Assembly (NCBI GenBank): GCA_025453395.1
Contig: JALOQK010000007.1
Location: forward strand, 6,524-70,523
From: Candidatus Omnitrophota bacterium
GTDB lineage: Bacteria; Omnitrophota; Gorgyraeia; Gygaellales; Profunditerraquicolaceae
DNA: 64,000 nucleotides
Direction: 5' to 3'
Below, piece by piece: positions 46,294-60,419 of the stretch (its first letter is position 1; every line of letters starts with the position of its first letter). A model generated the notes under the pieces. That model ran no database searches, was not told the DNA's origin, and saw only the letters and a list, made by a program, of their open reading frames with translations. The translations under genes and the position numbers were made by a program.

Positions 46294-49200
46294 TTATTTA
46301 GTTAAACCGCTTTTACGCAGATAATCGCTTTCGCTCATCTGCGGCCTTACTCCGTACATGGGATTAGGAAAAACCCAGAACTTGGTTTCTATGGCACCCA
46401 TGCCGCCGTGGAACACCTGGGCCTGGATAGAATACCTGTTCCGGGATAAATCTGCAGGCATATACCAATGTTGCAGGCCCTGCTCTGTCTTAAGGGTTAA
46501 TTCTGAAGCCGAATCAACAAGATAAGCATCCAGCCACGAAGCGGGTTTCTCTGGATAAGAAATTTCTGTGGACAGCGTCTCAAATCCGCCTTTTCTGGCC
46601 AAGGGATTATCAGCGTAATTGCTCGCGGTCTGTTTGTTGAAAGTATTAGTAAAACCATAATCCGCGTTCCAGATTAAATTTTCTGACTGGCCTGCAGCCT
46701 TAGCCGCGTACTTAAAGGCTAACTGCTGGCGGGTGATCGGCTCGCTTACATCCTTTAAGGTGTGCAACCTGACTAATCTCTGCGGCTGCATATTAAACAT
46801 CCGGGTAACCCCGGGCACCTGCACTAACGCGCCGGCTATAGCATTACCCGCAGCATCCTGATTAGACTGTGAATATAAATAAGACAAGGTCTCAGCCAGC
46901 CCTTTACTGTTATAAATATTGACTAGGGTGGGAAGCGAATATGCGGAATATGAATTCGCGTAATTATGCCAGGCAAAAGAAGAGATCTGCGATGAATCTA
47001 CGCCAAACCCTGCTTTGCCGCGTTCAGAGGTCAACGGTAAACCAAAGGTAAACATCTTATTCGCCCACTCAACATTTGACTGCTGCATACTAGCCCCCAC
47101 AGAACGCATAAGCCCGGGATTTCTATCGTCGGCAACAAGGCTGGCTACCCAGCGGGGATCTTCGGCCCCCTGGTTATAATCCCACTTCATCCTCTCCCGA
47201 TGCAAAATAAGCCCGTTGCCCGGGGTCATGTTATAAGTAGCTACGAATTTATTAAAAGCAAGCAAGTCTCTATCATAGGAGGTCTGGCTTAATACATCCT
47301 GTATGGCATTGTAACTGGGATTTTCTACTGCCTGGCCATATTGGTCTAATATCATACTTCCGGTCTTGACATCTGTAAGATAGAAGCTCTCTTTATACGG
47401 CTGGGGCATGACAAAATCCAATTCATTCTGCCATTCAGATTTATCTGCGGTAGAATTGTTCCAACCCAAAGACCATGCCGCCCCGCGTATCACTGAAGCA
47501 GCCATATTCACTCCGGAAGAGAAAAGCATCTTTGTCGTCATATTTCTTTCATCGCCGAAGTTCTTATCCAAAGCAGACTGCAGGCCTCCGGTAACCAGGC
47601 TTTCAAATACACCGGAAGTTACTCCACTATAAACCTGACTGGCAAATATCTGGCCCCTTGTAACGCCAATCTGTTTTAAGGCCTCATCAGTAGTAAGCGC
47701 GTCAGCCAAACCTTTCAATTGGCCCATAGATACCTTACCGGCAAACATAGGCATCTTTTCAGCGAGTTGCTTCCTCAAGGAAGCTATGGCCAAGTTACGA
47801 TTCATCTGGGCCTCATCAATACTTCCTCTTTGTAAATTTAATGACCCGGCCAAAGCCTTGCTATTAATCCTTTCCTGTTCTACTATCCCGGAGTTGTTTG
47901 CGCCTAAAGCATTATTTATCTTATTTTGTAACTGTTCTTGGGATAATTTCTGCGCATCCCCTTGAACCAAAAGAAGCTCAAACGGAATACTGGCGATTTT
48001 ATTTAGCTCCTTGTTATACTGCTCGAAGGTTATCTTTCCATCACGATAGTCTTTGTATGTTTTCTGTATTAAAGCAATGTCTTTAGCGCTTGCCAGATCC
48101 ACGCCAGCTGCGCGCAAGGTATAATCATAACGAAGCCTGGCCTCTATTTTGTCCTGTTTGCTGCCAAAATACCTTGAGGCATCTAACCCGTAGGTATTGG
48201 CCATGCCGCTAAATATAGGATAACTTACAGACTGAACCAGGCCTCCTACCAAAGGAGCCAGATATTTCTTTTTTTCCGGCAAGCTGTTGGTGGCAATTAT
48301 AGACATGGAGCTGGCGGCTAATCCCGGCCAACTCTGGGCATTAAAAGTATCCACAAAAGCGGCCTTGGCGAATCTGCCAAAAATTTGGCCGCCGCCTATT
48401 TGAGCTTTAGTATCAGTCCATTTTAAAATATCGGGATTGCTGGTGGGTTCAGCCAGATAGCGGCCAGGCTCAAGAGGCCCTTTAGGCACAACAGAAACAT
48501 CTGAAAATTGCCACATTTTATTTTTATCCAATGAAACCTCGTTGCCGCTTTTTGCATCAATATATTTTGAGTCATAATGATATACCTTGGGGTCCCAAAT
48601 AGACCTGCCTAAATTCGTAGCGCTTACCCCCGCAAACATCCCCAATATCTGCGCTGTTGCCCCGGGATTTTTTGCTGAATTGATTTTATCGCGATCTAAC
48701 GCGGCTATTACCGCGCTATTAGCAAACCCGCTCAAGGCTCCGACAGAAGCGCCTTTAAGCATATTAGAAAAGTTGGTGTTAAATCCAAAGTTACTAAAAC
48801 TGTTAGTGGTTTGAGTAATTCCAAAGGAATGCGTTGGTAGGCTAGGATTATTAATCTGGCTGTTAAGTGCTTCGGTCGGCTTAGCATCGCCAAGGGCGTC
48901 TGACGGATTAAGAAATCCCGCGGTTGCTCCGATTGCAACCCCAGAAACAATCATGGTGGTAGCCGGCTTCCACCCATAATAATTTCCTGCCACGCCCACA
49001 AGTCTTCCCACTTGGGAAGCGGCAACAAAAGTAGTATAACCTTTGGCCATGTTTGTAAGAGCAAAGCTGTTCTTTAAGGCGTCTCCCATAGCCGAGAAAG
49101 GCTTAATCGCGTTTACAGCAGTACTTCCTGGAGTGTTTGTAATAAGATTGCCCATGCCGGTGAAAGTATTGCTAAATCTGGTGCCCATGGTCGCGGTTTC

Positions 49201-49452
49201 AGAAGTAACTGGAGTTGCGGCTTCAAAACCGGAATTTAAGCTTGCGCCAATTGCCGCGGTACCAATAGAGATACCCGCGCTGGTAGCTATTTTGCCCCAA
49301 TCCACTTTAGAAATTTCTCCGCCGCCTGCGGAACTCCGAGCAGCAAAAGCTAATGGTTGTAATATTAAACAAAAAATTATTATTAGGGAAATAAGGTTTC
49401 CCCCTTTCCCCAATCTTTGACTGGTTTTCATCTGCAACTTTTTTTCAGTCAT
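46294..49452 (-). CDS. Exported 1052-aa protein with N-terminal signal/anchor and a G/S/T/A/N-rich N-terminal half; function unknown. Probably co-transcribed with the giant gene (1-nt spacer).
   Basis: ORF track. The N-terminus is MTEKKLQMKTSQRLGKGGNLISLIIIFCLILQPLAFAARSSAGGG. The stop at 46294-46296 is followed by the giant-gene ATG at 46290-46292. Confidence 0.8.
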   Translation of the reverse strand: MTEKKLQMKTSQRLGKGGNLISLIIIFCLILQPLAFAARSSAGGGEISKVDWGKIATSAGISIGTAAIGASLNSGFEAATPVTSETATMGTRFSNTFTGMGNLITNTPGSTAVNAIKPFSAMGDALKNSFALTNMAKGYTTFVAASQVGRLVGVAGNYYGWKPATTMIVSGVAIGATAGFLNPSDALGDAKPTEALNSQINNPSLPTHSFGITQTTNSFSNFGFNTNFSNMLKGASVGALSGFANSAVIAALDRDKINSAKNPGATAQILGMFAGVSATNLGRSIWDPKVYHYDSKYIDAKSGNEVSLDKNKMWQFSDVSVVPKGPLEPGRYLAEPTSNPDILKWTDTKAQIGGGQIFGRFAKAAFVDTFNAQSWPGLAASSMSIIATNSLPEKKKYLAPLVGGLVQSVSYPIFSGMANTYGLDASRYFGSKQDKIEARLRYDYTLRAAGVDLASAKDIALIQKTYKDYRDGKITFEQYNKELNKIASIPFELLLVQGDAQKLSQEQLQNKINNALGANNSGIVEQERINSKALAGSLNLQRGSIDEAQMNRNLAIASLRKQLAEKMPMFAGKVSMGQLKGLADALTTDEALKQIGVTRGQIFASQVYSGVTSGVFESLVTGGLQSALDKNFGDERNMTTKMLFSSGVNMAASVIRGAAWSLGWNNSTADKSEWQNELDFVMPQPYKESFYLTDVKTGSMILDQYGQAVENPSYNAIQDVLSQTSYDRDLLAFNKFVATYNMTPGNGLILHRERMKWDYNQGAEDPRWVASLVADDRNPGLMRSVGASMQQSNVEWANKMFTFGLPLTSERGKAGFGVDSSQISSFAWHNYANSYSAYSLPTLVNIYNSKGLAETLSYLYSQSNQDAAGNAIAGALVQVPGVTRMFNMQPQRLVRLHTLKDVSEPITRQQLAFKYAAKAAGQSENLIWNADYGFTNTFNKQTASNYADNPLARKGGFETLSTEISYPEKPASWLDAYLVDSASELTLKTEQGLQHWYMPADLSRNRYSIQAQVFHGGMGAIETKFWVFPNPMYGVRPQMSESDYLRKSGLTK

Positions 49453-49599
49453 TTTTGAGTTTTTAAGCTCTTTGTGAAACTATTTGTTATCAACTTAAAA
49501 AGAAAACCGGACTGTCAAATACCTGATTTCTCGTCGGTATCGGCAGCCCGGCTATCTTAAGCTTTTACTTTTTCGCTTTACTTTTTTCGCTTTTAAGAT

Positions 49600-49620
49600 C
49601 CGTGGCTTTGCGCCCTCCGA
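49600..49620 (-). promoter_or_regulatory. Conserved leader motif CCGTGGCTTTGCG-N-CCTCCGA (+ strand), copy A. A partial second copy CCGTGGCTTTC lies at 49645-49655.
   Basis: The same 13-mer plus CCTCCGA recurs at 58524-58553, at the same relative position (about +20 to +60) downstream of a second TTGACA/TATAGT promoter. Confidence 0.5.
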
Positions 49621-49669
49621 TTTCTCGGAGTTTGCCTGTTCGTTCCGTGGCTTTCTTAACGACACTTGA

Positions 49670-49969: not shown

Positions 49970-50018
49970 AACGGGCAGATTGGACATTAATATTGCAGAT
50001 TGGACATTTCATAGTTTG
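49970..50018 (+). promoter_or_regulatory. Operator-like array of 3 perfect copies of CAGATTGGACATT with 20-bp centre-to-centre phasing (TTGGACATT at 49970, 49990 and 50010)
   Basis: Direct sequence. The same TTGGACATT core recurs 3 times at 60431, 60471 and 60491 over the promoter of the HTH gene. Confidence 0.6.
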
Positions 50019-50554
50019 AAACAATCTGGATATTTGGCATTATATTCAGCTATCTTGGCTTCTTTAGCAGTTATCTTCTCGCTGATTAGTTCAATTTGCT
50101 TCTCTATCGTGTTAATTGCCTTGTTTAGCTTCTCAATAGCAGAGGCATAATCGCCACCAGTAGCCTGCAATGCCAATATCTGGCTTTTTAAATCATCAAC
50201 CGTTGCCTCTAAAGAGGCTCTTTGCGCCAAAAGCCCGGTAGTTACTTCACCATCCGGCTTGGCCTCACCATCAAGCTCTTTGCGCATAACAGCTATCCTG
50301 GCCAATATAATCGGGCAATCATCTTTTTCTTCTGGCGGCTCAGGAACAATAGCGCCGCTTTTAGAGGTATTTTGAGATTGGGTTATTCCCAAAGCATACT
50401 GATTTCCCTCTCCAAAAACATCTCCTGCCTGGCGATATTTATCCTGCACTGACCTGCCCATATAAATCTTCATCGCCACTAATGCCGCGGCGATTATAAT
50501 AACCAGAACCGCATACTCAATAAAACCTTGTGCCTTATTTTTTATTTTCCGCAT
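50009..50554 (-). CDS. Flp-type pilin-like N-terminus (KAQGFIEYAVLVIIIAAALVAM) fused to a C-terminal coiled-coil domain of about 100 aa (181 aa)
   Basis: ORF track. It has the (A/G)Q(G/S/T)xxEY class-III prepilin motif followed by a hydrophobic helix. The C-terminal half has a heptad-rich sequence (LEATVDDLKSQILALQ...KQIELISEKITAKEAKIAEYNAKY). Confidence 0.65.
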   Translation of the reverse strand: MRKIKNKAQGFIEYAVLVIIIAAALVAMKIYMGRSVQDKYRQAGDVFGEGNQYALGITQSQNTSKSGAIVPEPPEEKDDCPIILARIAVMRKELDGEAKPDGEVTTGLLAQRASLEATVDDLKSQILALQATGGDYASAIEKLNKAINTIEKQIELISEKITAKEAKIAEYNAKYPDCFKL

Positions 50555-51461
50555 AGTCCACCAATATTGTGGTTATTGACATATTCTCAGAGGCATTGCT
50601 GGCATTAGAAAGCATAATATTACATTTGTCCCCGGACGGATTAGAAAAATTCAATTCGGTCAAGGCTAACTCTATCTTCATATCTGCCGCTGGCGTCAGC
50701 TTCTTGCATGAAGGACAATCCCCGGACACGCCTCCGGCAACCTTTCTTTCAATAGGCTTCATATCCACCAGGTTCCATCCTTTAGCGGACATATTATCCT
50801 TATAAAAATTGGCCACAGGCTCTATATCGCTTGAGACAGAATAAGTCGCTCTCATTGTTTTATCCTGCTCTGACAAAGTCAACAAGGATGCCCCCGGATA
50901 AACCGGAGTAACGTCTTTCTTTGGATGCGCCAGCAACTTGGGGAAAACATTTTCCGCCTCTTTAGAAGAACTTGCATTATCATTTGTCTTGCTGTATGAA
51001 ACCGTAAATCTTGTCTTATTGTCCCGGGAAAATTCAGAAGGCATAAAACTTATGATCACCTGCTCCGGGTCTTTAGAAAAATACATGGTGCGCCCCATGG
51101 AATCTTCCATTTCCGGGGTCACCCTTACTGCCGGCAGTTTCTTTAGATTCTGCATTAATTCCTGCTCTGTCCAGCCTGATGCCGATAATTTTTTGCGGTA
51201 GAAATCCTTTATTGCCGCGGCGCCCTGGCTGGAAGCATAATAAATAAAATCTAATTTTCTCCCGGCGATCATCCGCTCTTCCCTCTTGACTTCTTCCGTT
51301 CCATAAGGAACGGACAATTCCTGTTTGGCAGATCCAAGTTCCCACCAGGAAGCGGAAGCAGAATTGGCCCCCGCGGTCAAAATAAAAATCATCAGCGCCA
51401 CCGGAAACATTTTTTTACGGCAATAAAACATTTTTCTCTTCCTCCTGTTTTCTAAAAACAA
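50535..51461 (-). CDS. Exported hypothetical protein with two related domains (xFYxxxxSAxGW motif twice). The true start is probably one of the internal Met codons (MFPVALMIFILTAGANSASA).
   Basis: ORF track. The N-terminus is signal-like. Its 5' end overlaps the end of the upstream TadG-like gene. Confidence 0.6.
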   Translation of the reverse strand: MFLENRRKRKMFYCRKKMFPVALMIFILTAGANSASASWWELGSAKQELSVPYGTEEVKREERMIAGRKLDFIYYASSQGAAAIKDFYRKKLSASGWTEQELMQNLKKLPAVRVTPEMEDSMGRTMYFSKDPEQVIISFMPSEFSRDNKTRFTVSYSKTNDNASSSKEAENVFPKLLAHPKKDVTPVYPGASLLTLSEQDKTMRATYSVSSDIEPVANFYKDNMSAKGWNLVDMKPIERKVAGGVSGDCPSCKKLTPAADMKIELALTELNFSNPSGDKCNIMLSNASNASENMSITTILVDYAENKK

Positions 51462-53281
51462 TCGGCATTGGCGGTACGCAGTTCTTTTATTTGCGTCTCT
51501 ATGTCCGCGGCATTTTGCCTGAAACCATCGGCATTATCCCTTAACAGATCCGCGGAAGCAAAAAGTGCGTTGGCCTGCTCTATCAACCCGGCAACCAACA
51601 ATGCGTTTGCCTCAACCTCCGTCTCACTTGCCTGACTTTCCATAGTTGCGGCGTTTTGATATAAATCCACTACTTGCCCTTCCAAAGCCGAAACATCTTC
51701 AACAACACTTTTGCAACGGTTATAGGTTACCCCCGGGTCGTCGGTCTCCACAATCGAGGCATCATGGCGCAATACCGGTTCATGGATCTGGCCAAGCCCG
51801 GTGAAATTAACCACACTGTAACTTGTAATATCCGGATATTCTGTTTGCCACAAACCAAGATCCCCGCCTTGATGATGTTGAGTAGTCCTTAAAGTAACTA
51901 AGCGGTCATGCACAATATCATCTATCCAGCAGATGATAAAAGGAAATGACGACTCAAGGTTTCCGCTTCGCACTGGGTACGCCGGCAACAATCCTGCCAA
52001 GGCTATGGCAAGAGGTGCGTACATTGAGGCCATCGTAGCTATGGCTGCTGCATTAGATTCCAAACCAAGTGCATTCATTTTTAAACCGGCGAAATTGGTT
52101 TCTATGCCTGCAAAAAGAGCAGCTTCCGCAGCCGCACATTGCGTAGCCCAGGTATGGCAACAAGGACAACCGGCATGGCAATGGCTGTGGCAACATGATA
52201 AACAAGGCCCCACGCAGGCGCAGGCAAGGACCAGAGCATCTTCTGCGATAGTATAACTTACTCCCGCTGCCACCCAACTAGCCTCAGCGGAAGCATATGA
52301 TGCCCCTGCCGCAGTTAAGGAAGCTGTAGCTGCCTTTGCAGAAGAAATAATATTCCACAAAAGCGGCAATTCCACAACACTGGGAAGTGCCGCGACTTTT
52401 AAATCAAAGGTATCCACCTTATCAAGCTTAACGCTTGTTTTGACAAAATGCAATCTTTCCTGGCCGTCTACCCAGCGATATTCATATTCATCGCCATGCT
52501 TTATATTATCAAGAAAATCGCTAAAGCTATCCCGGTAATTATTTCTTGCATCATCGCCAACAACAGAACTTGCGGGCTTGCCGGCTTTAAGCTTTGAACC
52601 GATTTCGCTGTTCATAAAAGCGAATTTATGCGCCAGTTCAATCGCGCTTTCCCTGCCTTCTTTTGCCATCTTTCTTATTGAAGCGTAAAAATAGATCTGC
52701 GCTGCGGCAAAGGCAGCAACAGAAATAAAGATCGCTATAAGCGTAGTAGTAAAAACCTCCATTGCCTCAAGCGCCAAGCCAATAGCAATTATCGCCTTGC
52801 CTATGCTAAATCCCGCCGCAGCCAGTTTCCCGATTGCCGCTGAAGTAAAGCCCAATGCCGCGCAAGGTGACGGACATGCAGTTGATTCCGCGGAACCGGC
52901 AGCAATTACCGCGGCAGTGGCTGCGGCCTCCGCGGCGGTTGCCGCAGCCTGACCGGCAATCGCCTGCGTATGCGCCTGGATCAAGTTATAAGTAGCAATG
53001 GCAAAAGAAACAGCCACCAGCGCATAAAACTCCCAATACCCTGTTTCCATGGCTGAATTGGCCTGGGCTACGCCGTTAAAGACATTTGCCATCACCGACC
53101 CGCCGGCTAAACTTCCGGCATCAGCGGCATTGCTGGTATCGGTCTTAAAAAAAGCCACCTTGCTTAAATTCATAGTCACCAGCGACATGGTGATAAGCAC
53201 AACCAGAACCACAAGAAATATGGGGATAAGCTGGCCCTTTTTGCCGAGACGGAATTTATAGAAATGAAATCTACGGAACAT
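51452..53281 (-). CDS. tadG: TadG-like pilus assembly protein (609 aa) with an N-terminal Tad_N-type TM segment and an unusual Cys/His-rich cluster
   Basis: The N-terminus is GQLIPIFLVVLVVLITMSLVTMNLSKV ... NAADAGSLAGG (a TadE/G-like motif). The internal cluster is CACVGPCLSCCHSHCHAGCPCCHTWATQC (about 52140-52230). Confidence 0.6.
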   Translation of the reverse strand: MFRRFHFYKFRLGKKGQLIPIFLVVLVVLITMSLVTMNLSKVAFFKTDTSNAADAGSLAGGSVMANVFNGVAQANSAMETGYWEFYALVAVSFAIATYNLIQAHTQAIAGQAAATAAEAAATAAVIAAGSAESTACPSPCAALGFTSAAIGKLAAAGFSIGKAIIAIGLALEAMEVFTTTLIAIFISVAAFAAAQIYFYASIRKMAKEGRESAIELAHKFAFMNSEIGSKLKAGKPASSVVGDDARNNYRDSFSDFLDNIKHGDEYEYRWVDGQERLHFVKTSVKLDKVDTFDLKVAALPSVVELPLLWNIISSAKAATASLTAAGASYASAEASWVAAGVSYTIAEDALVLACACVGPCLSCCHSHCHAGCPCCHTWATQCAAAEAALFAGIETNFAGLKMNALGLESNAAAIATMASMYAPLAIALAGLLPAYPVRSGNLESSFPFIICWIDDIVHDRLVTLRTTQHHQGGDLGLWQTEYPDITSYSVVNFTGLGQIHEPVLRHDASIVETDDPGVTYNRCKSVVEDVSALEGQVVDLYQNAATMESQASETEVEANALLVAGLIEQANALFASADLLRDNADGFRQNAADIETQIKELRTANADCF

Positions 53282-53288
53282 ATTATTC

Positions 53289-53573
53289 CTATTTTTGCCC
53301 TGTGCCGCCGGTTAAGACTTCTTCTTCTGTCAGATTATCCGGGGCATAGACCGGCCAGCGTAGCGTGTATTTGTCAGACGAAGTCCCGGCGGGAACCCGC
53401 GAGGCATTATAATTGGCCTGCCGCTTGACGATCTGGGCGTTGCCCCAGAACCAGATCCTGATGATCCCGCCGATAAAAAGAAAAATAATAATGAAAACCA
53501 CCGCGGTCTCAAGCGTTGACTGCCCGGATCGGCCTTTCTTAATCGGATTTATTCTGCGAACGGAGTTACCCAT
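53289..53573 (-). CDS. tadE: TadE-like minor pseudopilin (94 aa)
   Basis: The N-terminus is GQSTLETAVVFIIIFLFIGGIIRIWFW. It lies within the tad gene string. Confidence 0.55.
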   Translation of the reverse strand: MGNSVRRINPIKKGRSGQSTLETAVVFIIIFLFIGGIIRIWFWGNAQIVKRQANYNASRVPAGTSSDKYTLRWPVYAPDNLTEEEVLTGGTGQK

Positions 53574-54298
53574 TGCTGCGTCCTCTCCACTGTGCCATCC
53601 TTAGAGGCCTTACTGCTGTATTTATACTGACCATCAACCGGATCACGGTAAATATACTGCTCTACATCCACCAGATTTCCTCCTGAAATAATCTTATCAT
53701 TATCATCATTGCTATCGTCGTCGTTTTCCCTGATAGTGTAGGGAATAGTTGTCCTGATGCGCTCCTTAAGGCTAGAGCCCTTAATATTAGAAATACCGCC
53801 ATAATCTTCCTGCTTATTAACATTCTCTTCAAACTCAAGATTAGATTCTGTTGTCATATCTTCAACCCTTAAAGACCTGTTTTCTTCATCATCTTCTGAA
53901 ATATAATCACGGAATTTCCTTGTGTACTCGTCTTCATTGATCCGATAGGTCATGGTATTTTCCGGCTGTTCTCCCACCTTAGGCACTGCCCAAAACACAT
54001 TCGCAGAGCCGCTTACAGTCTGGGGGCTTCCTTTTTTGAAGCTTGAAAAATCCGCGTTGCGCCGATTCTGTAATAAGGTATACTGGACAGACGCGCCTGC
54101 TCCTTCGGATTCTGACCCGATATAAGTGCACCCCTTTTGCAACGCTCTCCGGAAAGCCTCCATTTTGGTGTATTGCTGGTCGTTTAATCTTTGCATGTAA
54201 GAAATAAGCATCCCGAATAAAAAAAGGATCAGCCCGCCGAAAATGGCAAGCTCTATGACTGCCTGGCCTTTTTCTCTGAAAACTGTCCCCGCGCGCAT
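53549..54298 (-). CDS. tadF: TadE/TadF-like pseudopilin (249 aa)
   Basis: The N-terminus is GQAVIELAIFGGLILFLFGMLISYMQ. It lies within the tad gene string. Confidence 0.55.
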   Translation of the reverse strand: MRAGTVFREKGQAVIELAIFGGLILFLFGMLISYMQRLNDQQYTKMEAFRRALQKGCTYIGSESEGAGASVQYTLLQNRRNADFSSFKKGSPQTVSGSANVFWAVPKVGEQPENTMTYRINEDEYTRKFRDYISEDDEENRSLRVEDMTTESNLEFEENVNKQEDYGGISNIKGSSLKERIRTTIPYTIRENDDDSNDDNDKIISGGNLVDVEQYIYRDPVDGQYKYSSKASKDGTVERTQQWVTPFAE

Positions 54299-54315
54299 TT
54301 TACCTCTTTCTTATG

Positions 54316-54750
54316 TTACTCCTTTGAATCTACTAAACTGGCCTCTAAATCTTCATTCTTAAATTCACTGTCAGACGCTCTTACAATATCATCAGGCAGA
54401 CCCTTCTTGGAAGAAATAAAATCGTATTTATCTTCGCCGCCCGCATATTCCTCTGAACGGCTGGAACCGGTAATAATGGTTGTGCCCTGAAGGTTGGAAC
54501 TTGTGCCGCCTCCCCGCAAAAGCCTAGTTGTGCTGACCATATCAGAAGTTGTGCTGGATTTACTTTGCGCGTACACCCCGGGGCTGGGCTCCCCTTCCTG
54601 AACAGGACTGATAAAAGCGTCTGTCATATCCTTAACTTTGCCCTGGAGGCCGCGTTTAATGTATGTATTCATACCGATAAAAGCCGCGGCCACCACGCTT
54701 AAGATAATCGCGTACTCCACAAAAGACAATCCTTTATTCTGTCTTATCAT
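54316..54750 (-). CDS. Flp-family pilin paralogue with extended C-terminal domain (144 aa)
   Basis: KGLSFVEYAIILSVVAAAFIGMNTYIKRGLQGKV. Confidence 0.65.
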   Translation of the reverse strand: MIRQNKGLSFVEYAIILSVVAAAFIGMNTYIKRGLQGKVKDMTDAFISPVQEGEPSPGVYAQSKSSTTSDMVSTTRLLRGGGTSSNLQGTTIITGSSRSEEYAGGEDKYDFISSKKGLPDDIVRASDSEFKNEDLEASLVDSKE

Positions 54751-54753
54751 CTT

Positions 54754-55104
54754 TTACCTCTGGGGTTCTTGGCTAAAATCCCCGACACTCTCATCCTTGC
54801 TTATATTCTGCTCTATCCGGGTACTGCTTTCCGAGATGCTCTTATTTGCTTCAAGCACAGAGCCTGAAGAACTGTCCGCGGGATTAGTGTAGCTTGTGGA
54901 AGTTTCCGCGATCTTACGCGTTATTCTGCTGTTGGCGACTGTCGCCCCGGGAGAATACATACCGCCATCGCTTATTTGCCCGGCAGTATTACGTAAAGAC
55001 CCCTGCACGCCTCTTTTAAAATAGACAGTCATGGAAAAAATAGCAATAGCCACAACCCCGATCATCACAACATACTCCATTATGCTCTGGGCCTTGTTCT
55101 TCAT
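54754..55104 (-). CDS. Flp-family pilin paralogue (116 aa)
   Basis: KAQSIMEYVVMIGVVAIAIFSMTVYFKRGVQG. Confidence 0.65.
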   Translation of the reverse strand: MKNKAQSIMEYVVMIGVVAIAIFSMTVYFKRGVQGSLRNTAGQISDGGMYSPGATVANSRITRKIAETSTSYTNPADSSSGSVLEANKSISESSTRIEQNISKDESVGDFSQEPQR

Positions 55105-55107
55105 AAC

Positions 55108-55263
55108 TTACCTCTTGGATTCATCCAGCTCTTCCTGCGCCTGCTTTAGCCGCGCGTTCATTGAGCGCTGGATATATTGATACATCGCTATCAATGCCGC
55201 CGATATAACAATAATAAGCATCGCGTATTCCAGAAAGTTCTGCCCGCGTTTTGAATTAAGCAT
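55108..55263 (-). CDS. flp: Short Flp pilin (51 aa), absent from the ORF track because it is under 60 aa
   Basis: Manual translation gives MLNSKRGQNFLEYAMLIIVISAALIAMYQYIQRSMNARLKQAQEELDESKR*. The ATG is at 55261-55263 and the TAA at 55108-55110. Confidence 0.65.
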   Translation of the reverse strand: MLNSKRGQNFLEYAMLIIVISAALIAMYQYIQRSMNARLKQAQEELDESKR

Positions 55264-55266
55264 AAA

Positions 55267-55545
55267 CTATTCTCCGCTATCTTTTCCTGCGATGTTGCTT
55301 GTTACCGAAGCTGCCACCGTGCCCATAACCCCTTCTTTAGTCAACCCGCCCTCAGGGGCAGCTTCGCCTTGGCTTACATTTCCGGTGTCATCCGGGACAT
55401 TGTTGACTATTGCCCCGGAGGCAGTGTTAAAATAATTTTTAAATGAGCCCTTCATTTTCATAATAAAACCCGCTGATACTATCGCGGCTATTACCACCGC
55501 CATAATTACAAAATACTCCGCTGTTGTCTGGGCTTTTTTATTCAT
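55267..55545 (-). CDS. Flp-family pilin paralogue (92 aa)
   Basis: KAQTTAEYFVIMAVVIAAIVSAGFIM. Confidence 0.7.
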   Translation of the reverse strand: MNKKAQTTAEYFVIMAVVIAAIVSAGFIMKMKGSFKNYFNTASGAIVNNVPDDTGNVSQGEAAPEGGLTKEGVMGTVAASVTSNIAGKDSGE

Positions 55546-56400
55546 TTAGAGCACCTTTTTAGTCACAAAATCCAAGAGTATCGGCCCGCCGATGACAATG
55601 CCGATAACCGGAAGTATGCAGAATATTAAAGGTATCAATATCTTTAACGGCGCCTGCATGGCGATTCTCTCTCCGCGGTTAAACCTCTGCATGCGCGAAT
55701 CTTCAGAAAGTATGGTAAAAGCCTCGGCAACCGGGGTGCCCATTCTCTCGGCCAAAACAAGGGTCTGGACAAAGGAACTAACTTCAGAAATATTAAGCCT
55801 TCTGGACATGTCTTTTAATGCCTGCGAACGCGATTTGCCCCACTTGATTTCCTCCAGCACAAAACCCAATTCTTCAAGCATGGGGTTCATGGTGGTTTTT
55901 TCAAGTATCCATTTTATGGAAGTGGTAAAATCCAGGCCTGCCTCAATACAAAGCCCTAACAGATCTACTGTTTCCGGCAAAATGCGCGCGATAGCATTTT
56001 TGCGCCGCGCGATTATCTGCTTTAAGAAAATATCCGGGATAATATACCCTAATGCCAGACAAACAATAAATGTCGGGGGGTCGAATTTATTAAAACCGAA
56101 ATAAGCCGCTATGCACAAGACAACTATCAACAATATTTTCAGATTAAAAAAGGCCTGAACGCTGAATTTTACCCGCGAGGCGTCAAGCTTAAGCTTGATC
56201 TTGTCATAAATCTTGATCTTCTCCAGCATTTTATGCGTAAAAGGAAAGATATCATTAAGAAAAGAATTAAAATTAAATTTCCCTCCAGTTGCCTCTTCGG
56301 ATAATTTCATGCGCGAGGCGGAAACTTTCTCATCATACCGCGAGGCAAGAAGGATGAAACTGGCGCATCCCACGATAAAAAGAATTATTAATATTTCCAT
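55546..56400 (-). CDS. tadC: TadC-like inner-membrane platform protein (T2SS F-type domain), 284 aa
   Basis: Polytopic membrane protein with T2SSF-like helices. It is adjacent to the TadB-like gene and the pilin genes. Confidence 0.75.
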   Translation of the reverse strand: MEILIILFIVGCASFILLASRYDEKVSASRMKLSEEATGGKFNFNSFLNDIFPFTHKMLEKIKIYDKIKLKLDASRVKFSVQAFFNLKILLIVVLCIAAYFGFNKFDPPTFIVCLALGYIIPDIFLKQIIARRKNAIARILPETVDLLGLCIEAGLDFTTSIKWILEKTTMNPMLEELGFVLEEIKWGKSRSQALKDMSRRLNISEVSSFVQTLVLAERMGTPVAEAFTILSEDSRMQRFNRGERIAMQAPLKILIPLIFCILPVIGIVIGGPILLDFVTKKVL

Positions 56401-56418
56401 ATCTCTCCTATTATCCGC

Positions 56419-57288
56419 CTATACTTTTATTTGGCTGAATTTATGGATCAAAATCATCCCCACTATTTGTAAACCGCCCGCGATAATCAACATAAACCTG
56501 CCCTGCTCGTTTTGCATCATCGCGTCAAAATGATGCGGATTAAATTTCAATACCCACATCACAAAAAGTATCGGAAGAACCGACATGATTATGCCCTGCA
56601 GCCTTCCCTGAAGGGTCAAGGTCTTAATATTCTCTTTTAGTTTACGGTTATCTCTAATGGTAGTCACCAGGCGGCTGAAGACCTTGGTTAAATCTCCTCC
56701 TGTTTCACGCGCCACCAAAATAGAATTAACTACCATGCTTAAATCTTCCATCATCATTCTTTTATCCAGCCTGCGCAAACTCTCCTCAAGGGTGATACCC
56801 ATCTTATTTTCCCTTACCACTAAGCCGATTTCCTGGCTCATCGGAGCAGGCATTTCTTCAATCAAAACCTCAAGCGACTGCAAAAGGCTCAAGCCGCCTT
56901 TTAAGGAACTTGAAAGTATCATAATCGCGTCTAATATCTGGACATTGAATTTTTTGCGCCGCCTGCCATTACGGATTTTTAATATAAGATTTGGTATGAC
57001 AAGGCCCAAAAACAACCCTGCGATAGCAATAAGCGGCGAGCCTGAAAGTAAAAAGAATATTCCGGCAAATATCGGAGGCAGGATAAAGTAAAAACGCACG
57101 ATGGATTTGGGGCTTTTATCATAATAAAAAAGCTTATCCAGCTCCTGCGCTACGACTTCTTCTTTTTTTTCTTTCCAGATTTTTAGTTTATCTTCAAGGG
57201 AAGGGGCAAACGCCATAGTAAGGATCACAATGGCCGCCGCTGTCAAAAACAAAACACTTATCAAAGCCATGCCGCTAAACATTGTCAA
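56419..57288 (-). CDS. tadB: TadB-like inner-membrane platform protein, 289 aa
   Basis: Membrane protein paralogous to the adjacent TadC-like gene, in the order typical of tad loci. Confidence 0.75.
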   Translation of the reverse strand: MTMFSGMALISVLFLTAAAIVILTMAFAPSLEDKLKIWKEKKEEVVAQELDKLFYYDKSPKSIVRFYFILPPIFAGIFFLLSGSPLIAIAGLFLGLVIPNLILKIRNGRRRKKFNVQILDAIMILSSSLKGGLSLLQSLEVLIEEMPAPMSQEIGLVVRENKMGITLEESLRRLDKRMMMEDLSMVVNSILVARETGGDLTKVFSRLVTTIRDNRKLKENIKTLTLQGRLQGIIMSVLPILFVMWVLKFNPHHFDAMMQNEQGRFMLIIAGGLQIVGMILIHKFSQIKV

Positions 57289-57312
57289 CTCCTGTTATGG
57301 TGTGCTTGCCTT

Positions 57313-57669
57313 TTATTGTGGCCAGTACTCATCACTCTGCTTGGCAACTGTTTCTGTGCCTGTGCGGGTCTGCTTCTGCTTACTGACAGTAGTAGTCTTG
57401 GTCTTCGCGCCAACATCATCCCCGGCCGCAGCGTCTTCGGTTGTGCCAGACACATCCTCGGAAGATTCTGTGTTGCTGATAATTGTATATTCATTGGTAG
57501 TCTGCCCGGGAGAAAATTGTTCTCCGATCTGGTCAGAAGCTTCCCTTATTTTTCCTTGCACGCCGCGCTTAAAATATGTCTGCATGGCGATAAGAGCGGC
57601 TACTACTACGGCAATAATTACCGCGTATTCCAGAGTGCTCTGAGCTTTTTCACTATCACGCATAAACAT
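57313..57669 (-). CDS. Flp-family pilin paralogue with C-terminal extension (118 aa)
   Basis: KAQSTLEYAVIIAVVVAALIAMQTYFKRGVQGKI. Confidence 0.65.
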   Translation of the reverse strand: MFMRDSEKAQSTLEYAVIIAVVVAALIAMQTYFKRGVQGKIREASDQIGEQFSPGQTTNEYTIISNTESSEDVSGTTEDAAAGDDVGAKTKTTTVSKQKQTRTGTETVAKQSDEYWPQ

Positions 57670-57712
57670 TTTATCACCTCCTCAAGCTTTTGACCACCTT
57701 CTATTAACAAAT

Positions 57713-58096
57713 TTAATGACCGCCCAAATACCCCGGGGCAGAAGTATCTTCTTCCTGCCACCCGATAACCTGCTGACGAGAAGCATCGGTTACTTCGCTA
57801 CCCACAACTCTCTCTACCTCTCCCTCTTTCTTCAGTCTCTCTGTTTTAGTAGCATCGGTCTTACTCTGGGCGCTTGAGGAAGCATAATACGGCTCATATT
57901 GTCCGCTTGTAAATTCTAAAGTCTGCCCTCCCACATCCCCAGCTGCACCGGTATGATCCACAACGTCTTTTGTCCTTCCCTGCAAGCCCCTTCTCACATA
58001 AACCTGCATGGCTAATGCCGCGCCTACAACCAAGCCTATTAAGATGGCGTATTCTGCGGTAGACTGTCCGTTCTTTTTTCTTAAACGCATAAACAT
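57713..58096 (-). CDS. Flp-family pilin paralogue with C-terminal extension (127 aa)
   Basis: KNGQSTAEYAILIGLVVGAALAMQVYVRRGLQG. Confidence 0.65.
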   Translation of the reverse strand: MFMRLRKKNGQSTAEYAILIGLVVGAALAMQVYVRRGLQGRTKDVVDHTGAAGDVGGQTLEFTSGQYEPYYASSSAQSKTDATKTERLKKEGEVERVVGSEVTDASRQQVIGWQEEDTSAPGYLGGH

Positions 58097-58144
58097 TTTT
58101 CACCCCCCTTTTTTTATACCCTTAGCTTGCCAATTGCCTGCCTG

Positions 58145-58312
58145 CTAAAACTTTATCTTGTCTACCCCGCTTTTCATCTGGTCGCCTACATGCGTCAACG
58201 AATCTTGAACCCTATTTCCGATTACCTTGTTGGCAACCACAACTATTGCCGCGACAATGGCTGTCAGGATAACCACATACTCCAAGGTTGACTGCCCTTT
58301 TTTCTTGATCAT
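58145..58312 (-). CDS. flp: Canonical short Flp pilin (55 aa), first gene after the promoter and leader; absent from the ORF track
   Basis: Manual translation gives MIKKKGQSTLEYVVILTAIVAAIVVVANKVIGNRVQDSLTHVGDQMKSGVDKIKF*. The SD GGAGGAG lies 6 nt upstream of the ATG (58310-58312). The stop TAG is at 58145-58147. Confidence 0.75.
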   Translation of the reverse strand: MIKKKGQSTLEYVVILTAIVAAIVVVANKVIGNRVQDSLTHVGDQMKSGVDKIKF

Positions 58313-58342: not shown

Positions 58343-58480
58343 ATCCCGACGTTACGCTTCGCGTAAGTCGGGATTATTTCGGCCAAACGATTTACGTTCA
58401 CTTCGTTCCGTAAATCGTGGCCTCAATAAAAAAGCCGAGTTACCAATATAAACCTTTTTTAGGCTTTCGGTAACCCGGCT
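58343..58480 (-). promoter_or_regulatory. Structured 5' leader: three consecutive stem-loops between the promoter and the first flp gene
   Basis: H1 (58343-58374) pairs atcccgacgttacgc with gcgtaagtcgggat. H2 (58381-58422) pairs a perfect 10-bp acgatttacg with cgtaaatcgt and has GGCC clamps. H3 (58433-58480) pairs agccgagttacc with ggtaacccggct. None is followed by a U-tract on the coding strand. Confidence 0.5.
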
Positions 58481-58523
58481 AACGTTGTCGCTTTTGACCC
58501 TCCAGAAATTGCGAGCAATCGTC

Positions 58524-58553
58524 CCGTGGCTTTGCGTGGCCGCCGACCTCCGA
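58524..58553 (-). promoter_or_regulatory. Conserved leader motif CCGTGGCTTTGCG...CCTCCGA, copy B
   Basis: Identical 13-mer plus 7-mer to the copy at 49600-49620. Confidence 0.5.
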
Positions 58554-58582
58554 CAGCCGTGCTATTTCGTTGCCGCAATCAA

Positions 58583-58611
58583 ACTATAACATTTCTAATA
58601 AACACTGTCAA
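58583..58611 (-). promoter_or_regulatory. Near-consensus sigma70 promoter for the flp/tad operon: -35 TTGACA (58606-58611), 17-nt spacer, -10 TATAGT (58583-58588)
   Basis: The minus strand reads cTTGACAgtgtttattagaaatgtTATAGTttg. It starts about 33 nt after the stop of the HTH gene. Confidence 0.6.
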
Positions 58612-58643: not shown

Positions 58644-60419
58644 TTAAAGCTTAAACCAGATTCTTTTTTCCTGAAAACTGCATCCGGTTTCGTTAAGCCT
58701 TAAAAAAGCGTATTCCAGATCTTTGCGCCAGGCGCAATTTTCCGGAAAAATAAATTCCGCGGTATAATGTTTATCAAAGGCGGATAGTTTTGTTTTTAGA
58801 TTGTAGAAACGGCTTTTCATCGTCGAGAAATCCACGTCCTGATAGGACGCGGGCAAAAAATGCCACCTGAAATAGGCGTCCAGAAAATATAAATATCTCT
58901 CCAGGTACTCTTTTATTTCGGCGGGTTTTTCCTGCGCGTCCACCCAGGAAAAGAAACGCTGGGCATCAGCGGTATAAGTGAACAATTCCATTTTACGGCT
59001 ATAATCCTGAAAGGTTAATTCCGGAGCCGGCCATCTTTGAAAATAGGCATGGCATAAATCTTCTGTTGACAAGTTTGCAAGCAAAGAATTCTTCAGAATA
59101 AGCAAAGAAATCTTATCCCCTAAAGATGCTTTGACTGCGGCGCCTTTTAACGTAAACCATTGATTCTTATCCGGTTGCAGTATATTTATTTCTATGCTCG
59201 CCACAAAGATCTTCTTTCCTAAAGGCTTAATCTCAAAGGGGCAGAAATCGCTTATGGATTGAACTTTACGGTAATTGACAAATTGCCAAGGCCAAACCGC
59301 GAAGATCAAACCGGTTTTTTTATACTGGTCAAATTTGAAAATATTTATGTCCTCAAAACGCTCCCCCTGAAAAATAAGTGACGACACATAGGCATCATCT
59401 TTTCCTTCGCAGGCGTTGAATAAATCCACAAATTCTTCTGTGGGCCGTTCATATCCGGGCGCGGAAAAAAGAATCCAAATATTCTTTTCATTTAGGGCTT
59501 GGTTAGCGTAAATCCTTGTTTTGCTTAATGTTAGGGAAAAATCATAGGTTATGTAAGGAGTAGACCAAACTGTATAAAAACGCGGGTCAAAATAAAGATA
59601 CTTGCCGCTGGATAACATTATTTTCAGGCTGCGCACTTCTTCCGGGATTGTGCCCATTAAACGGCCTATTTCCGGAAAGACCATTTCCTTAACCCTTTCT
59701 AGCTCATTAAGATACGCGAGAAAATCTTCTTTGCTGAAATTGGCTCCTAATAAAGGCCAAATTTCCGGTTCCAGAGAGGGATTTAACAAGAAATTGTCAA
59801 ATAGGGAAGAATAAAATAAAGCTTCTAAGCGCTTCAACGATTGCTCGTTGTAATAAGAAGTTTTATTGAAAATTTGATTGTTCAAACGAGGCAAACCTTT
59901 AAACAAGGAATCTACTGCTTTTAAAAGAATCACCCCGGTTGTAATTGCTTCTAAGAACTTATCTTCCTGTGGTGCAATGGCTTGCGGTATAGAAACCGGA
60001 ATAAACCTTGGCTCTGGCACTGGCTCCGGAACAGGTTCGGGCTTTGGCTCTGGTTTAGGTTCAAAGATAGGTTCTACTTTGGACGGCTCTTCTGCTTTTG
60101 TTTCTTGTGGCTTTTGGCTTGTGGCTTGTGACTCACTAGTCGGATTTAATTCCGTGACAGGCTGCGCCAACGCAAGCGCCTTACGGATTCTCTCTTTTAA
60201 CTCTGGAGCAATGCTCTTTTTGGGCCTGCTTCTGCGGCCAACAGGCATACTTAAACCTGACTCTTTAAAAACCGCGTTTATGCTTGATTTTGAAATATCA
60301 ACCTGAAATTGTTCTTGGATCAATAGATTTAAAGCCCGGCAGCTTATTTTGGGGTTTTCTTTCTTTTTTAGCAGTATAAGCTGTTTTATTTCATCTGTAA
60401 CTTTGTAAGCAATCCCCAT
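58644..60419 (-). CDS. HTH-domain protein (591 aa): N-terminal helix-turn-helix, a GRRSRPKK basic patch, an (EPKP)n/(PEPV)n Pro-rich linker, and a C-terminal domain of about 400 aa of unknown function. Candidate locus regulator.
   Basis: The N-terminus KISCRALNLLIQEQFQVDISKSSINAVFKESGL is HTH-like. Its own promoter is covered by the TTGGACATT array. Confidence 0.55.
   Translation of the reverse strand: MGIAYKVTDEIKQLILLKKKENPKISCRALNLLIQEQFQVDISKSSINAVFKESGLSMPVGRRSRPKKSIAPELKERIRKALALAQPVTELNPTSESQATSQKPQETKAEEPSKVEPIFEPKPEPKPEPVPEPVPEPRFIPVSIPQAIAPQEDKFLEAITTGVILLKAVDSLFKGLPRLNNQIFNKTSYYNEQSLKRLEALFYSSLFDNFLLNPSLEPEIWPLLGANFSKEDFLAYLNELERVKEMVFPEIGRLMGTIPEEVRSLKIMLSSGKYLYFDPRFYTVWSTPYITYDFSLTLSKTRIYANQALNEKNIWILFSAPGYERPTEEFVDLFNACEGKDDAYVSSLIFQGERFEDINIFKFDQYKKTGLIFAVWPWQFVNYRKVQSISDFCPFEIKPLGKKIFVASIEINILQPDKNQWFTLKGAAVKASLGDKISLLILKNSLLANLSTEDLCHAYFQRWPAPELTFQDYSRKMELFTYTADAQRFFSWVDAQEKPAEIKEYLERYLYFLDAYFRWHFLPASYQDVDFSTMKSRFYNLKTKLSAFDKHYTAEFIFPENCAWRKDLEYAFLRLNETGCSFQEKRIWFKL

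Follow-up and report, generated by a model that had tools for sequence, protein, structure and literature searches.

Tad complexes have been reported across the Omnitrophota and connected with a life as predators or parasites (Seymour et al. 2023, PMC10066038). The giant genes of this phylum were found to be preceded by a conserved secretion-system locus that comprises more than 10 genes, and the loci upstream of giant genes were said to contain "many small genes ... class III signal peptides" (West-Roberts et al. 2023, 10.1101/2023.11.21.568195); a 2026 preprint makes the same association of pilus and secretion genes with giant genes. Here we dissect one such locus in a stretch of 64,000 nucleotides from a Candidatus Omnitrophota bacterium (assembly GCA_025453395.1, contig JALOQK010000007.1, positions 6,524 to 70,523; this whole stretch is called the window, and positions refer to it unless a related locus is named), which carries eight Flp-like pilin genes between 50009 and 58312. 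The locus described there, in which many small class-III-signal genes accompany rcpC, gspF-like genes, a gspD-like secretin and a gspE-like ATPase directly upstream of a giant gene, is of the type found here, in the same phylum; the rotamase gene that was also described is absent from the window and present in a related locus, L021. We consider it probable that the region holds the complete pilin complement of a Tad-type (type IVc) machine, i.e. the major and minor pilins of one fibre. The core of this finding has been published before, as a single sentence that does not take the set apart; orthologous pilin families, the extended families D and E introduced below, a helical-bundle addition and riboswitches are described nowhere in the Omnitrophota literature that we searched.

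Among characterized systems, the Kil Tad pilus of Myxococcus xanthus, a predatory pilus with one major and 14 minor pilins (Herrou et al. 2025, PMC12075869), would be the best functional analogue. It is likewise a Tad machine with a very large pilin repertoire, in that case of a contact-dependent predator, and it contains small, fully helical Flp 'adapter' pilins of ∼59 amino acids (aa), TadE/F-like pilins and, at the tip, a TadG-like pilin that is large and variable; a peptidase encoded elsewhere processes some of the Kil pilins. However, the Kil pilins are spread over four clusters and their multiplicity lies mostly in the TadE/F/G-like tip proteins, whereas here eight Flp-like genes with the EY signature stand in one operon; moreover, the type III secretion partner of Kil is absent here and a giant open reading frame (ORF) is present instead. 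The likeness drawn here is one of composition. In Bdellovibrio, four non-interchangeable flp genes are required for predation (Avidan et al. 2017, PMC5430801), and the flp complement of Bdellovibrio and like organisms, called the largest known in 2017, is exceeded by the eight genes in one operon reported here. The canonical Flp pilins (Aggregatibacter Flp1, Caulobacter PilA and Pseudomonas Flp; Pfam family PF04964) share with the present set a short leader, the G/XXXXEY motif, a hydrophobic helix and a tad locus, but six of the eight genes here are 2–4 times longer, four of the eight have Ala at position −1, and none reaches the PF04964 cut-off. A likeness to archaeal class III pilins (PF04021; UPF0333) is seen in the best Pfam match of the 55-aa gene and in 'UPF0333' as the IMG name of several family members; unlike those pilins, the present genes lie in a bacterial locus with a secretin and RcpC, and their scores stay below the cut-off.

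The original prediction, which had been made from the letters of the DNA alone, placed eight Flp-type ORFs at 50009–58312, and all eight were found on the minus strand at exactly the coordinates it gave. The operon begins with a Flp-sized prepilin of 55 aa (58145–58312; leader MIKKKG, mature part 49 aa), which is followed by extended prepilins of 127 aa (57713–58096, with a conserved QYEPYY motif) and 118 aa (57313–57669, with the motif GEQFSPG, a Thr/Ser-rich C-terminal part and a terminal EYW). Next come TadB and TadC, both T2SSF-domain proteins, which sit between the 118-aa and the 92-aa genes just as had been proposed. The 92-aa prepilin (55267–55545) ends in a Gly/Ser/Thr/Ala-rich tail of ∼40 aa, the 51-aa prepilin (55108–55263) has a conserved RSMNARLKQxQEEL motif, the extended 116-aa prepilin (54754–55104) carries the motif MYSPGATV, and the extended 144-aa prepilin (54316–54750) has Leu instead of Gln at +1 and an acidic tail of ∼30 aa. 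The last of the eight, of 181 aa (50009–50554), bears a C-terminal addition of ∼120 aa that consists of a linker and a predicted helical bundle at residues 80–179. According to the family assignment described below, the 55-, 127-, 118-, 92-, 51- and 144-aa genes belong to families C, D, E, A, B and F, respectively, the 116-aa gene is nearest to families G and E, and the 181-aa gene has the core of family L.

All eight proteins begin with a Lys/Arg-rich leader of 5–10 residues, have Glu at +5 and Tyr at +6 without exception, and continue after EY with an unbroken run of 13–17 hydrophobic or small residues. The motif (G/A)Q(S/T/G)xxEY, which had been ascribed to the whole set, is exact in six genes, while the 51-aa gene reads GQNFLEY and the 144-aa gene GLSFVEY. 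Conservation of Glu+5 in the extended paralogues had been named as a check and is complete; for the Gly at the cleavage site the outcome is divided, since −1 is occupied by Gly in the 55-, 127-, 51- and 144-aa genes and by Ala in the 118-, 92-, 116- and 181-aa genes. Among 35 sequences of the 118-aa family, −1 is Gly in 21 and Ala in 14, and this interchange among orthologues suggests that Ala at −1 is tolerated rather than disqualifying. Either residue is typical at this position in archaeal class III signal peptides.

The six frames of the window were searched with a strict pattern (Met, 1–20 residues, [GA][QL]xxxE[YLTF], and a run of 12 or more residues that are hydrophobic or small). The pattern retrieved 10 distinct ORFs, all on the minus strand between 50009 and 58312, and had no match in 30 shuffled windows. 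Two further pilin-like ORFs, together with a TadG-like gene, were missing from the list of the original prediction. The 55-aa and 51-aa ORFs had been called unannotated; they were indeed missing from the ORF track used, but both are coding sequences at NCBI (MCU0666753.1 for the 55-aa and MCU0666747.1 for the 51-aa protein), where all eight genes are annotated as such under the name 'hypothetical protein' (the 118-aa gene is MUF05_06630). In IMG, five of the eight, including the 55-aa and 51-aa ORFs, are named 'Flp pilus assembly pilin Flp', and names among database relatives also include 'class III signal peptide-containing protein'.

Size separates the genes into two groups. A Flp pilin of the usual kind has a mature part of ∼40–60 aa and no further domain, and only the 55-aa and 51-aa genes (mature parts of 49 and 44 aa) are of this size, the mature parts of the other six being 87–173 aa. 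Extensions of 60–100 aa had been predicted; the extensions are real, but beyond a mature core of ∼45 residues they span 42–128 aa. In searches against Pfam and NCBIfam, none of the eight reached the cut-off of any pilin family. For PF04964 Flp_Fap (cut-off 32.2 bits), the 144-aa gene scored best at 19.2 bits and the 51-aa gene had 18.4 bits, the others giving 14.5–18.4 bits or no match; for PF04021 Class_IIIsignal (cut-off 23.7 bits), the scores were 22.3 (55-aa gene), 17.1 (92-aa), 14.7 (118-aa) and 13.3 (127-aa), and one database relative, P0059, carries a precomputed PF04021 match. Sub-threshold matches to DUF4244 also occurred among the eight. These weak but consistent matches (Flp_Fap, Class_IIIsignal, DUF4244 and TadE) would support pilin identity. 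The 55-aa and 51-aa genes fit Flp in motif, size and locus but not in Pfam score, and the other six fail in size as well; thus, we file the eight outside PF04964 and describe them as predicted Flp-like, class-III-signal pilin-like proteins of a Tad-type system.

How old this set is can be judged from related loci. A scan with TadB, restricted to one genome per species, yielded 19 loci (17 titled Omnitrophota and two 'uncultured Planctomycetales'), and one more was obtained via a pilin homologue; families were assigned by reciprocal best hits and family alignments. The same families recur in conserved order in the 19 related loci, and every locus that extends far enough has 8–13 ORFs with the same N-terminal signature. 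The interpretation of the original prediction is upheld in part: these are Flp/class-III pilin-like genes in a Tad-type locus, but the set cannot be called unusually diversified for this lineage, whose loci regularly carry 8–13 genes of this kind. Six of the eight (55, 127, 118, 51, 144 and 181 aa) have counterparts by reciprocal best hit in many or most of the 19 loci, which argues for non-redundant roles. Orthologues of the 55-aa gene (family C) have 53–63 aa and occur in 12 loci, those of the 51-aa gene (family B) have 49–63 aa and occur in 11 loci, those of the 127-aa gene (family D) have 108–128 aa, occur in 12 loci and are conserved over the whole length, and those of the 118-aa gene (family E), of ∼101–121 aa, are present in all informative loci. 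The 144-aa gene (family F) has orthologues of 108–115 aa in at least six loci, from which the ∼30 acidic residues of the window copy are absent, and orthologues of the 181-aa gene (family L) end at 56–63 aa (...YYKRSLQGRYRQAGDxLGGGEQYTP). Members of the family of the 92-aa gene (family A) have 49–71 aa; its sole reciprocal best hit is a 52-aa gene of L004, the closest relative, and in the family alignment its tail of ∼40 residues is specific to the window. The orthology of the 116-aa gene is ambiguous, as it aligns with G-family members of 109–387 aa that share a Q/Y-x-PG-x-T motif. Most of the eight are therefore an old, co-inherited pilin complement and not recent paralogues or a lineage-specific expansion. 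Gene order varies in one respect: TadB and TadC split the array in the window and in L004, and in most other loci they follow the family-L gene.

Each family is present once in the window. In three related loci, families D and E are duplicated as an alternating D-E-D-E series (L008 3229–4962, L017 3314–5991 and L021 8849–10345), which hints that the two may work as a pair. The N-terminal parts of the duplicates are 54–93% identical (the value of 93% is for the E pairs of L008 and L021), and their C-terminal parts are 31–53% identical. Such a difference fits with a buried helix and an exposed, fast-evolving C-terminal part, and suggests that the C-terminal parts of D and E may be under diversifying pressure.

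The extensions differ in kind. The 118-aa family has 374 database relatives with ∼50% identity over ∼98% of the length, all named ones being Omnitrophota, and in its alignment past the helix GEQFSPGxTT, alternating Thr/Ser positions, RTGxExV and the terminal EYW are conserved; its extension is thus real and conserved over the full length. An AlphaFold2 model of the 118-aa protein built from 35 sequences has a helix at 9–48 and a long beta-hairpin at 57–75/90–108, with a mean predicted local distance difference test score (pLDDT) of 64, i.e. at low confidence. Foldseek against the PDB gave no match at E ≤ 0.001 for this model or for that of the 181-aa protein; for the 118-aa model, only long beta-hairpins of pore-forming toxins and of FliF were returned. 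Due to the low confidence of the model and the lack of a matching solved structure, the fold is to be taken as a hypothesis. When the C-terminal 69 aa of the 118-aa pilin were searched by phmmer against 1.84 billion representatives, two matches were obtained, both to long proteins (989 and 2693 aa) and both uninformative; taken alone, the extension is too short and diverges too much to be traced. With the 55-aa pilin as query, a homologue search retrieved nothing but the query, whose length does not suffice for so large a database.

In the 181-, 92- and 144-aa genes, by comparison, the extensions are lineage-specific add-ons. Only one full-length relative of the 181-aa protein was found in 5.8 billion clusters (P0122, 38% identity), and six orthologues lack the tail. 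AlphaFold2, run on this two-sequence alignment, predicts a helix at 7–47, a disordered linker, and antiparallel helices at 80–95, 108–131 and 137–174, and the tail (residues 80–179) has high confidence (pLDDT 83–91). The 'coiled coil' that had been assigned to this gene is thus roughly right, but it is predicted as an intramolecular antiparallel helical bundle and not necessarily as an intermolecular coiled coil. In Foldseek, the model matched only generic antiparallel coiled coils (XaxA at E = 0.05, prefoldin, Kif21A and FadA), none of them significantly. Cys80 and Cys178, the sole cysteines of the protein, flank the bundle and are both conserved in P0122, which makes a disulfide staple plausible. 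As modelled, the bundle would be a lineage-specific decoration. The NCBI product name of this protein, 'sensitive to high expression protein 9 homolog', is almost certainly spurious and driven by its coiled-coil-like composition. Long helix-rich, coiled-coil-like C-terminal additions were also seen on G-family genes of L008 (4967–6130, 387 aa in total) and L011 (5620–6189, 189 aa in total), so decorations seem to be attached to different pilin cores in different lineages. A C-terminal module shared by the 181-aa pilin and the 609-aa TadG-like protein, both of which are helical there and then read 'DCF', was considered and rejected (best BLASTP E = 9.9).

The pilins are embedded in a Tad locus, in which a TadA/CpaF ATPase, TadB, TadC, an RcpA-type secretin and RcpC/CpaB are all encoded. 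Gene order was read from the window together with L001, a second assembly of the same locus, and runs: RcpC/CpaB, secretin–TonB_C, ParA/TadZ–TadA/CpaF fusion, DUF192, a 591-aa protein, three pilins, TadB, TadC, four pilins, two TadE/F-like genes, a TadG-like gene, a gene of ∼300 aa, the 181-aa pilin, a gap of 556 nt, a 1052-aa gene and the giant ORF; all features of the window described here lie on the minus strand. The window contains the C-terminal part of an RcpA/CpaC-type secretin with a TonB_C fusion (63028–64000), whose full gene of 534 aa lies at 720–2324 of L001 and is preceded there by the RcpC/CpaB gene; the C-terminal TonB_C domain has E = 4.7e-14, and the same fusion is found in L021. 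The fusion of a TadZ/CpaE-like ParA domain with a TadA/CpaF ATPase (60870–63023, 717 aa) matches AAA_31/ParA at residues 3–242 and T2SSE at 365–646 (E = 5.5e-65). L021 has a 720-aa counterpart with the same domains, and L013 an ORF at this position whose length is likewise 717 aa. The 591-aa protein (58644–60419), encoded between DUF192 and the pilin array, shows a weak N-terminal helix-turn-helix match and a Pro/Glu-rich linker, and may be a regulator; ORFs of 522–660 aa are found at this position in several related loci. The platform proteins are TadB-like (56419–57288, 289 aa; PF00482 T2SSF, E = 2.3e-18) and TadC-like (55546–56400, 284 aa; PF00482 T2SSF, E = 2.7e-15).

Downstream of the seven leading pilins are two candidate minor pilins, which account for the two additional ORFs of the pattern search. 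The first is TadE/TadF-like (53549–54298, 249 aa), reads GQAVIEL, has no Pfam match and finds reciprocal best hits of 201–375 aa in 14 loci; the second is TadE-like (53289–53573, 94 aa), reads GQSTLET, scores 19.3 bits with PF07811 TadE against a cut-off of 22.9, and finds reciprocal best hits in 11 loci. Both genes thus have a G-Q-x-x-x-E-(L/T) motif and conserved orthologues, and both lie at the position expected, before the TadG-like gene. The TadG-like protein (51452–53281, 609 aa) has an N-terminal match to PF13400 Tad of 22.3 bits, exactly at the cut-off, and contains 15 Cys with a dense Cys/His cluster, CACVGPCLSCCHSHCHAGCPCC. Its orthologues in 15 loci have 5–24 Cys, with similar clusters in some (L021, L014 and L019); metal binding or a disulfide knot is a possible role for the cluster. 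A conserved accessory protein of ∼300 aa (50535–51461) gives a weak match to PF27226, and a gene of ∼260–280 aa takes the same position in related loci.

Beyond the 181-aa pilin, a 1052-aa protein without recognised domains is encoded (46294–49452) immediately upstream of a giant ORF of at least 15,433 codons (3–46292), which runs off the start of the window. The N-terminus of the giant protein has a transmembrane segment followed by a Peptidase_C39-like domain (PF03412, E = 1.2e-8). The start codon of the giant ORF overlaps the stop of the 1052-aa gene. This ORF is a typical Omnitrophota 'giant gene' directly downstream of a Tad-like locus. In the related loci, too, a large or giant ORF follows directly wherever the sequence continues far enough.

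Intergenic gaps in the pilin operon are 0–48 nt. Shine–Dalgarno-like sequences precede most of the genes, and the strongest are those of the first three (GGAGGAG, GGGGGGTGA and GAGGAGGTGA). A gap of 331 nt upstream of the first pilin gene contains a promoter-like site, an aptamer and two hairpins. The promoter-like site (58583–58611) consists of TTGACA, a 17-nt spacer, TATAGT and a TG extension, an 11/12 match that is to be read as a match to consensus only. The aptamer (58466–58573) is a full-length match to the cyclic di-GMP (c-di-GMP)-I (GEMM-I) model, with 37.8 bits against the RF01051 gathering threshold of 35; an aptamer upstream of the pilin array scores 37.2 bits in L021 and, at the same position in L004, a sub-threshold 33.6 bits. 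Between aptamer and Shine–Dalgarno sequence, two strong hairpins (58343–58420) have a minimum free energy of −37.2 kcal/mol (z-score −6.06, matched by none of 200 shuffles); no U-tract follows them, they are not a recognisable terminator, and they are a possible expression platform. Pilus and motility genes are frequent neighbours of GEMM-I elements, and the leader aptamer probably controls the pilin operon, although regulation by its ligand is something that we infer. Intrinsic terminators or attenuators often lie behind major pilin genes; after the first pilin genes here, no intrinsic terminators or attenuator hairpins were found, the folds being no better than those of shuffles.

The resemblance to pilus riboswitches of the GEMM-I type extends to a second element, an aptamer of the c-di-GMP-I-GGC variant (49538–49645; RF03167, 60.5 bits against a gathering threshold of 59), which lies upstream of the 1052-aa gene and the giant ORF and is itself preceded by a promoter-like site (49697–49670). 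To our knowledge, the ligand of the GGC variant class has not been established. In eight related loci, too, the large ORF region is immediately preceded by an aptamer of the same clan (L003 16286–16376, L005 9167–9262, L007 12335–12430, L008 13009–13100, L011 13896–13995, L015 12243–12361, L016 12225–12321 and L017 12119–12246); it belongs to the c-di-GMP-I-GGC variant, but to plain c-di-GMP-I in L017. One aptamer of this clan thus stands ahead of the pilin operon and another ahead of the giant gene, and it is therefore probable that the cell deploys fibre and giant protein jointly, plausibly to attach to host or prey cells or to attack them. PilZ genes have been noted behind giant genes, and GGDEF domains inside giant genes (West-Roberts et al. 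2023).

A search for the cognate prepilin peptidase had been suggested as a check. We screened ORFs of 110–330 aa with at least four hydrophobic segments in the window and 20 other loci (the 19 related ones and L001, ∼240 kb), and only TadB and TadC were retrieved, with no prepilin peptidase; for this genome, the sequence covered reaches into the rcpC gene and stops 2.3 kb upstream of the ATPase gene. In L021, the cluster begins with rotamase–RcpC–secretin, with no peptidase in between. Taken together, the screen and this gene order indicate that the locus does not encode a TadV/CpaA of its own. A literature search for a prepilin peptidase in Velamenicoccus or the Omnitrophota gave nothing specific; a supplement of Seymour et al. 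(PMC10066038) has K02654 (PilD) entries for two Omnitrophota genomes or more. All Bdellovibrio genomes lack TadV, yet predation depends on Flp pilins (Avidan et al. 2017), and KilP, the major pilin of Myxococcus, is believed to be processed by a peptidase that its own locus does not encode (Herrou et al. 2025). With PilD in the Omnitrophota list and these two precedents, an unlinked prepilin peptidase, encoded elsewhere in the genome, is plausible.

On these data, a fibre of several subunit types, or one with a minor-pilin tip, would be the most reasonable reading of the set. The original prediction had suggested such a fibre, and the conserved families strengthen the suggestion. All subunits would be made as prepilins with a short basic leader, and the peptidase encoded elsewhere would cut after the Gly or Ala at −1 and expose a Q-x-x-x-E-Y N-terminus. 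The TadZ/TadA ATPase fusion would then, together with TadB and TadC, assemble the fibre, which would leave the cell through the RcpC/secretin conduit. The best candidates for the bulk subunits are the 55-, 127- and 118-aa proteins, because they have the strongest ribosome-binding sites and their families are duplicated in relatives. In that case, conserved N-terminal helices would make up the core of the fibre, and its surface would consist of the C-terminal parts of the 127- and 118-aa proteins, which are Thr/Ser-rich and diverge fast. The remaining Flp-like proteins, the two TadE/F-like proteins and the Cys-rich TadG-like protein would most likely be minor pilins that prime assembly and make up an adaptor or tip complex, much as in the Kil pilus. 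The genes, their motifs, their orthology, the composition of the locus and the aptamer matches are direct observations; we infer cleavage, the identity of the major subunit, the formation of a tip and any role in predation. Several observations weigh against such a fibre: no pilin family model is reached at its cut-off, six genes far exceed the canonical Flp length, Ala replaces Gly at −1 in half of the set, no peptidase came out of the screened loci, the model of the 118-aa protein resembles no solved pilin, and the leader aptamer is barely over its threshold and lies upstream of the pilins in only two or three loci. Moreover, the division into major and minor pilins is a guess from gene order, Shine–Dalgarno strength and the pattern of duplication.

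A different use of the same genes would be a short periplasmic pseudopilus in the style of a type II secretion system, a piston or scaffold that pushes or displays the giant protein, perhaps also the 1052-aa protein, through the secretin without ever forming a long fibre. This locus was called 'type II secretion system-like' by West-Roberts et al. (2023) and generally precedes giant genes. The large or giant ORF directly behind the pilins wherever the loci extend far enough, and the related aptamers before pilin operon and giant gene, fit with such a function. Multi-member pseudopilin sets are, in addition, typical of type II secretion systems. However, the machinery is of Tad type (RcpC, TadB and TadC as separate proteins, and a CpaF/TadA-like ATPase fused to TadZ), no GspC, GspL or GspM was found, the pilins have the Flp motif and are not GspG-like in sequence, and the folded passage through a secretin of a protein of more than 15,000 aa with an N-terminal transmembrane segment is hard to picture; we hold this explanation to be unlikely. 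If the set does form one fibre, its members might still be alternative major pilins, used singly or in changing mixtures for antigenic, phage-escape or host-range variation. The tandem duplication of families C, D and E in some loci, with N-terminal parts better conserved than the diverged C-terminal ones, would fit such variation, as would the lineage-variable extensions on the 181-, 92- and 144-aa genes and on the G-family members (109–387 aa). But there is one copy per family in the window, the old families co-occur in fixed order across most loci, which indicates distinct and simultaneous roles, and a single operon with one promoter-like site shows no sign of switching elements, so we see only a slight chance for alternative majors.

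The long genes raise the further question of whether they encode pilins at all. The 116-, 144-, 181- and 92-aa ORFs might in part be membrane-anchored periplasmic or surface proteins that share nothing with pilins except a class-III-like signal anchor. No pilin-family hidden Markov model recognises them at threshold, their extensions are long and acidic, the 92- and 144-aa tails are specific to this lineage, and the 116-aa gene lacks a clear orthologue. Yet all of them keep Glu+5/Tyr+6 and, after the helix, the motif Y-x-(K/R)-R-(G/S)-x-Q, as do the conserved families, and two of them, the 181- and 144-aa proteins, have cores with orthologues among the short pilin families, which leaves this idea very improbable. 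In the other direction, the favoured fibre can be elaborated far beyond what was outlined above. Families D and E might be an obligate pair that co-polymerises into a new class of Tad filament, with a helical core, a sheath of long Thr/Ser-rich beta-hairpins and a tip, built from the other Flp-like, TadE/F-like and TadG-like proteins, that includes the disulfide-stapled 181-aa bundle and docks the giant protein, and two riboswitches of the c-di-GMP class might switch on what would be an undescribed attack organelle of ultrasmall Omnitrophota; we give this version no more than a small chance of being correct. The more modest reading, of one Tad-type fibre with its major and minor pilins, is the one that we retain.

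The Omnitrophota are uncultured, ultrasmall bacteria that are thought to be predators or parasites, and their Tad-like loci and giant genes are the main genomic clues to how hosts are attacked. Our analysis refines an already described locus type and does not overturn current views. What had been summarised as many small class-III genes is resolved into a fixed set of largely conserved pilin families, of which at least two are extended, lack a Pfam model and have variable surfaces. New elements are the family structure of the pilins, the conserved extended pilins D and E, for which no model exists, the rare helical bundle of the 181-aa protein, and the paired riboswitch aptamers. The pilin families give concrete targets for proteomics, cryo-electron tomography and multimer modelling, and the aptamers before pilin operon and giant gene suggest a testable regulatory link between the two via c-di-GMP or a related signal.

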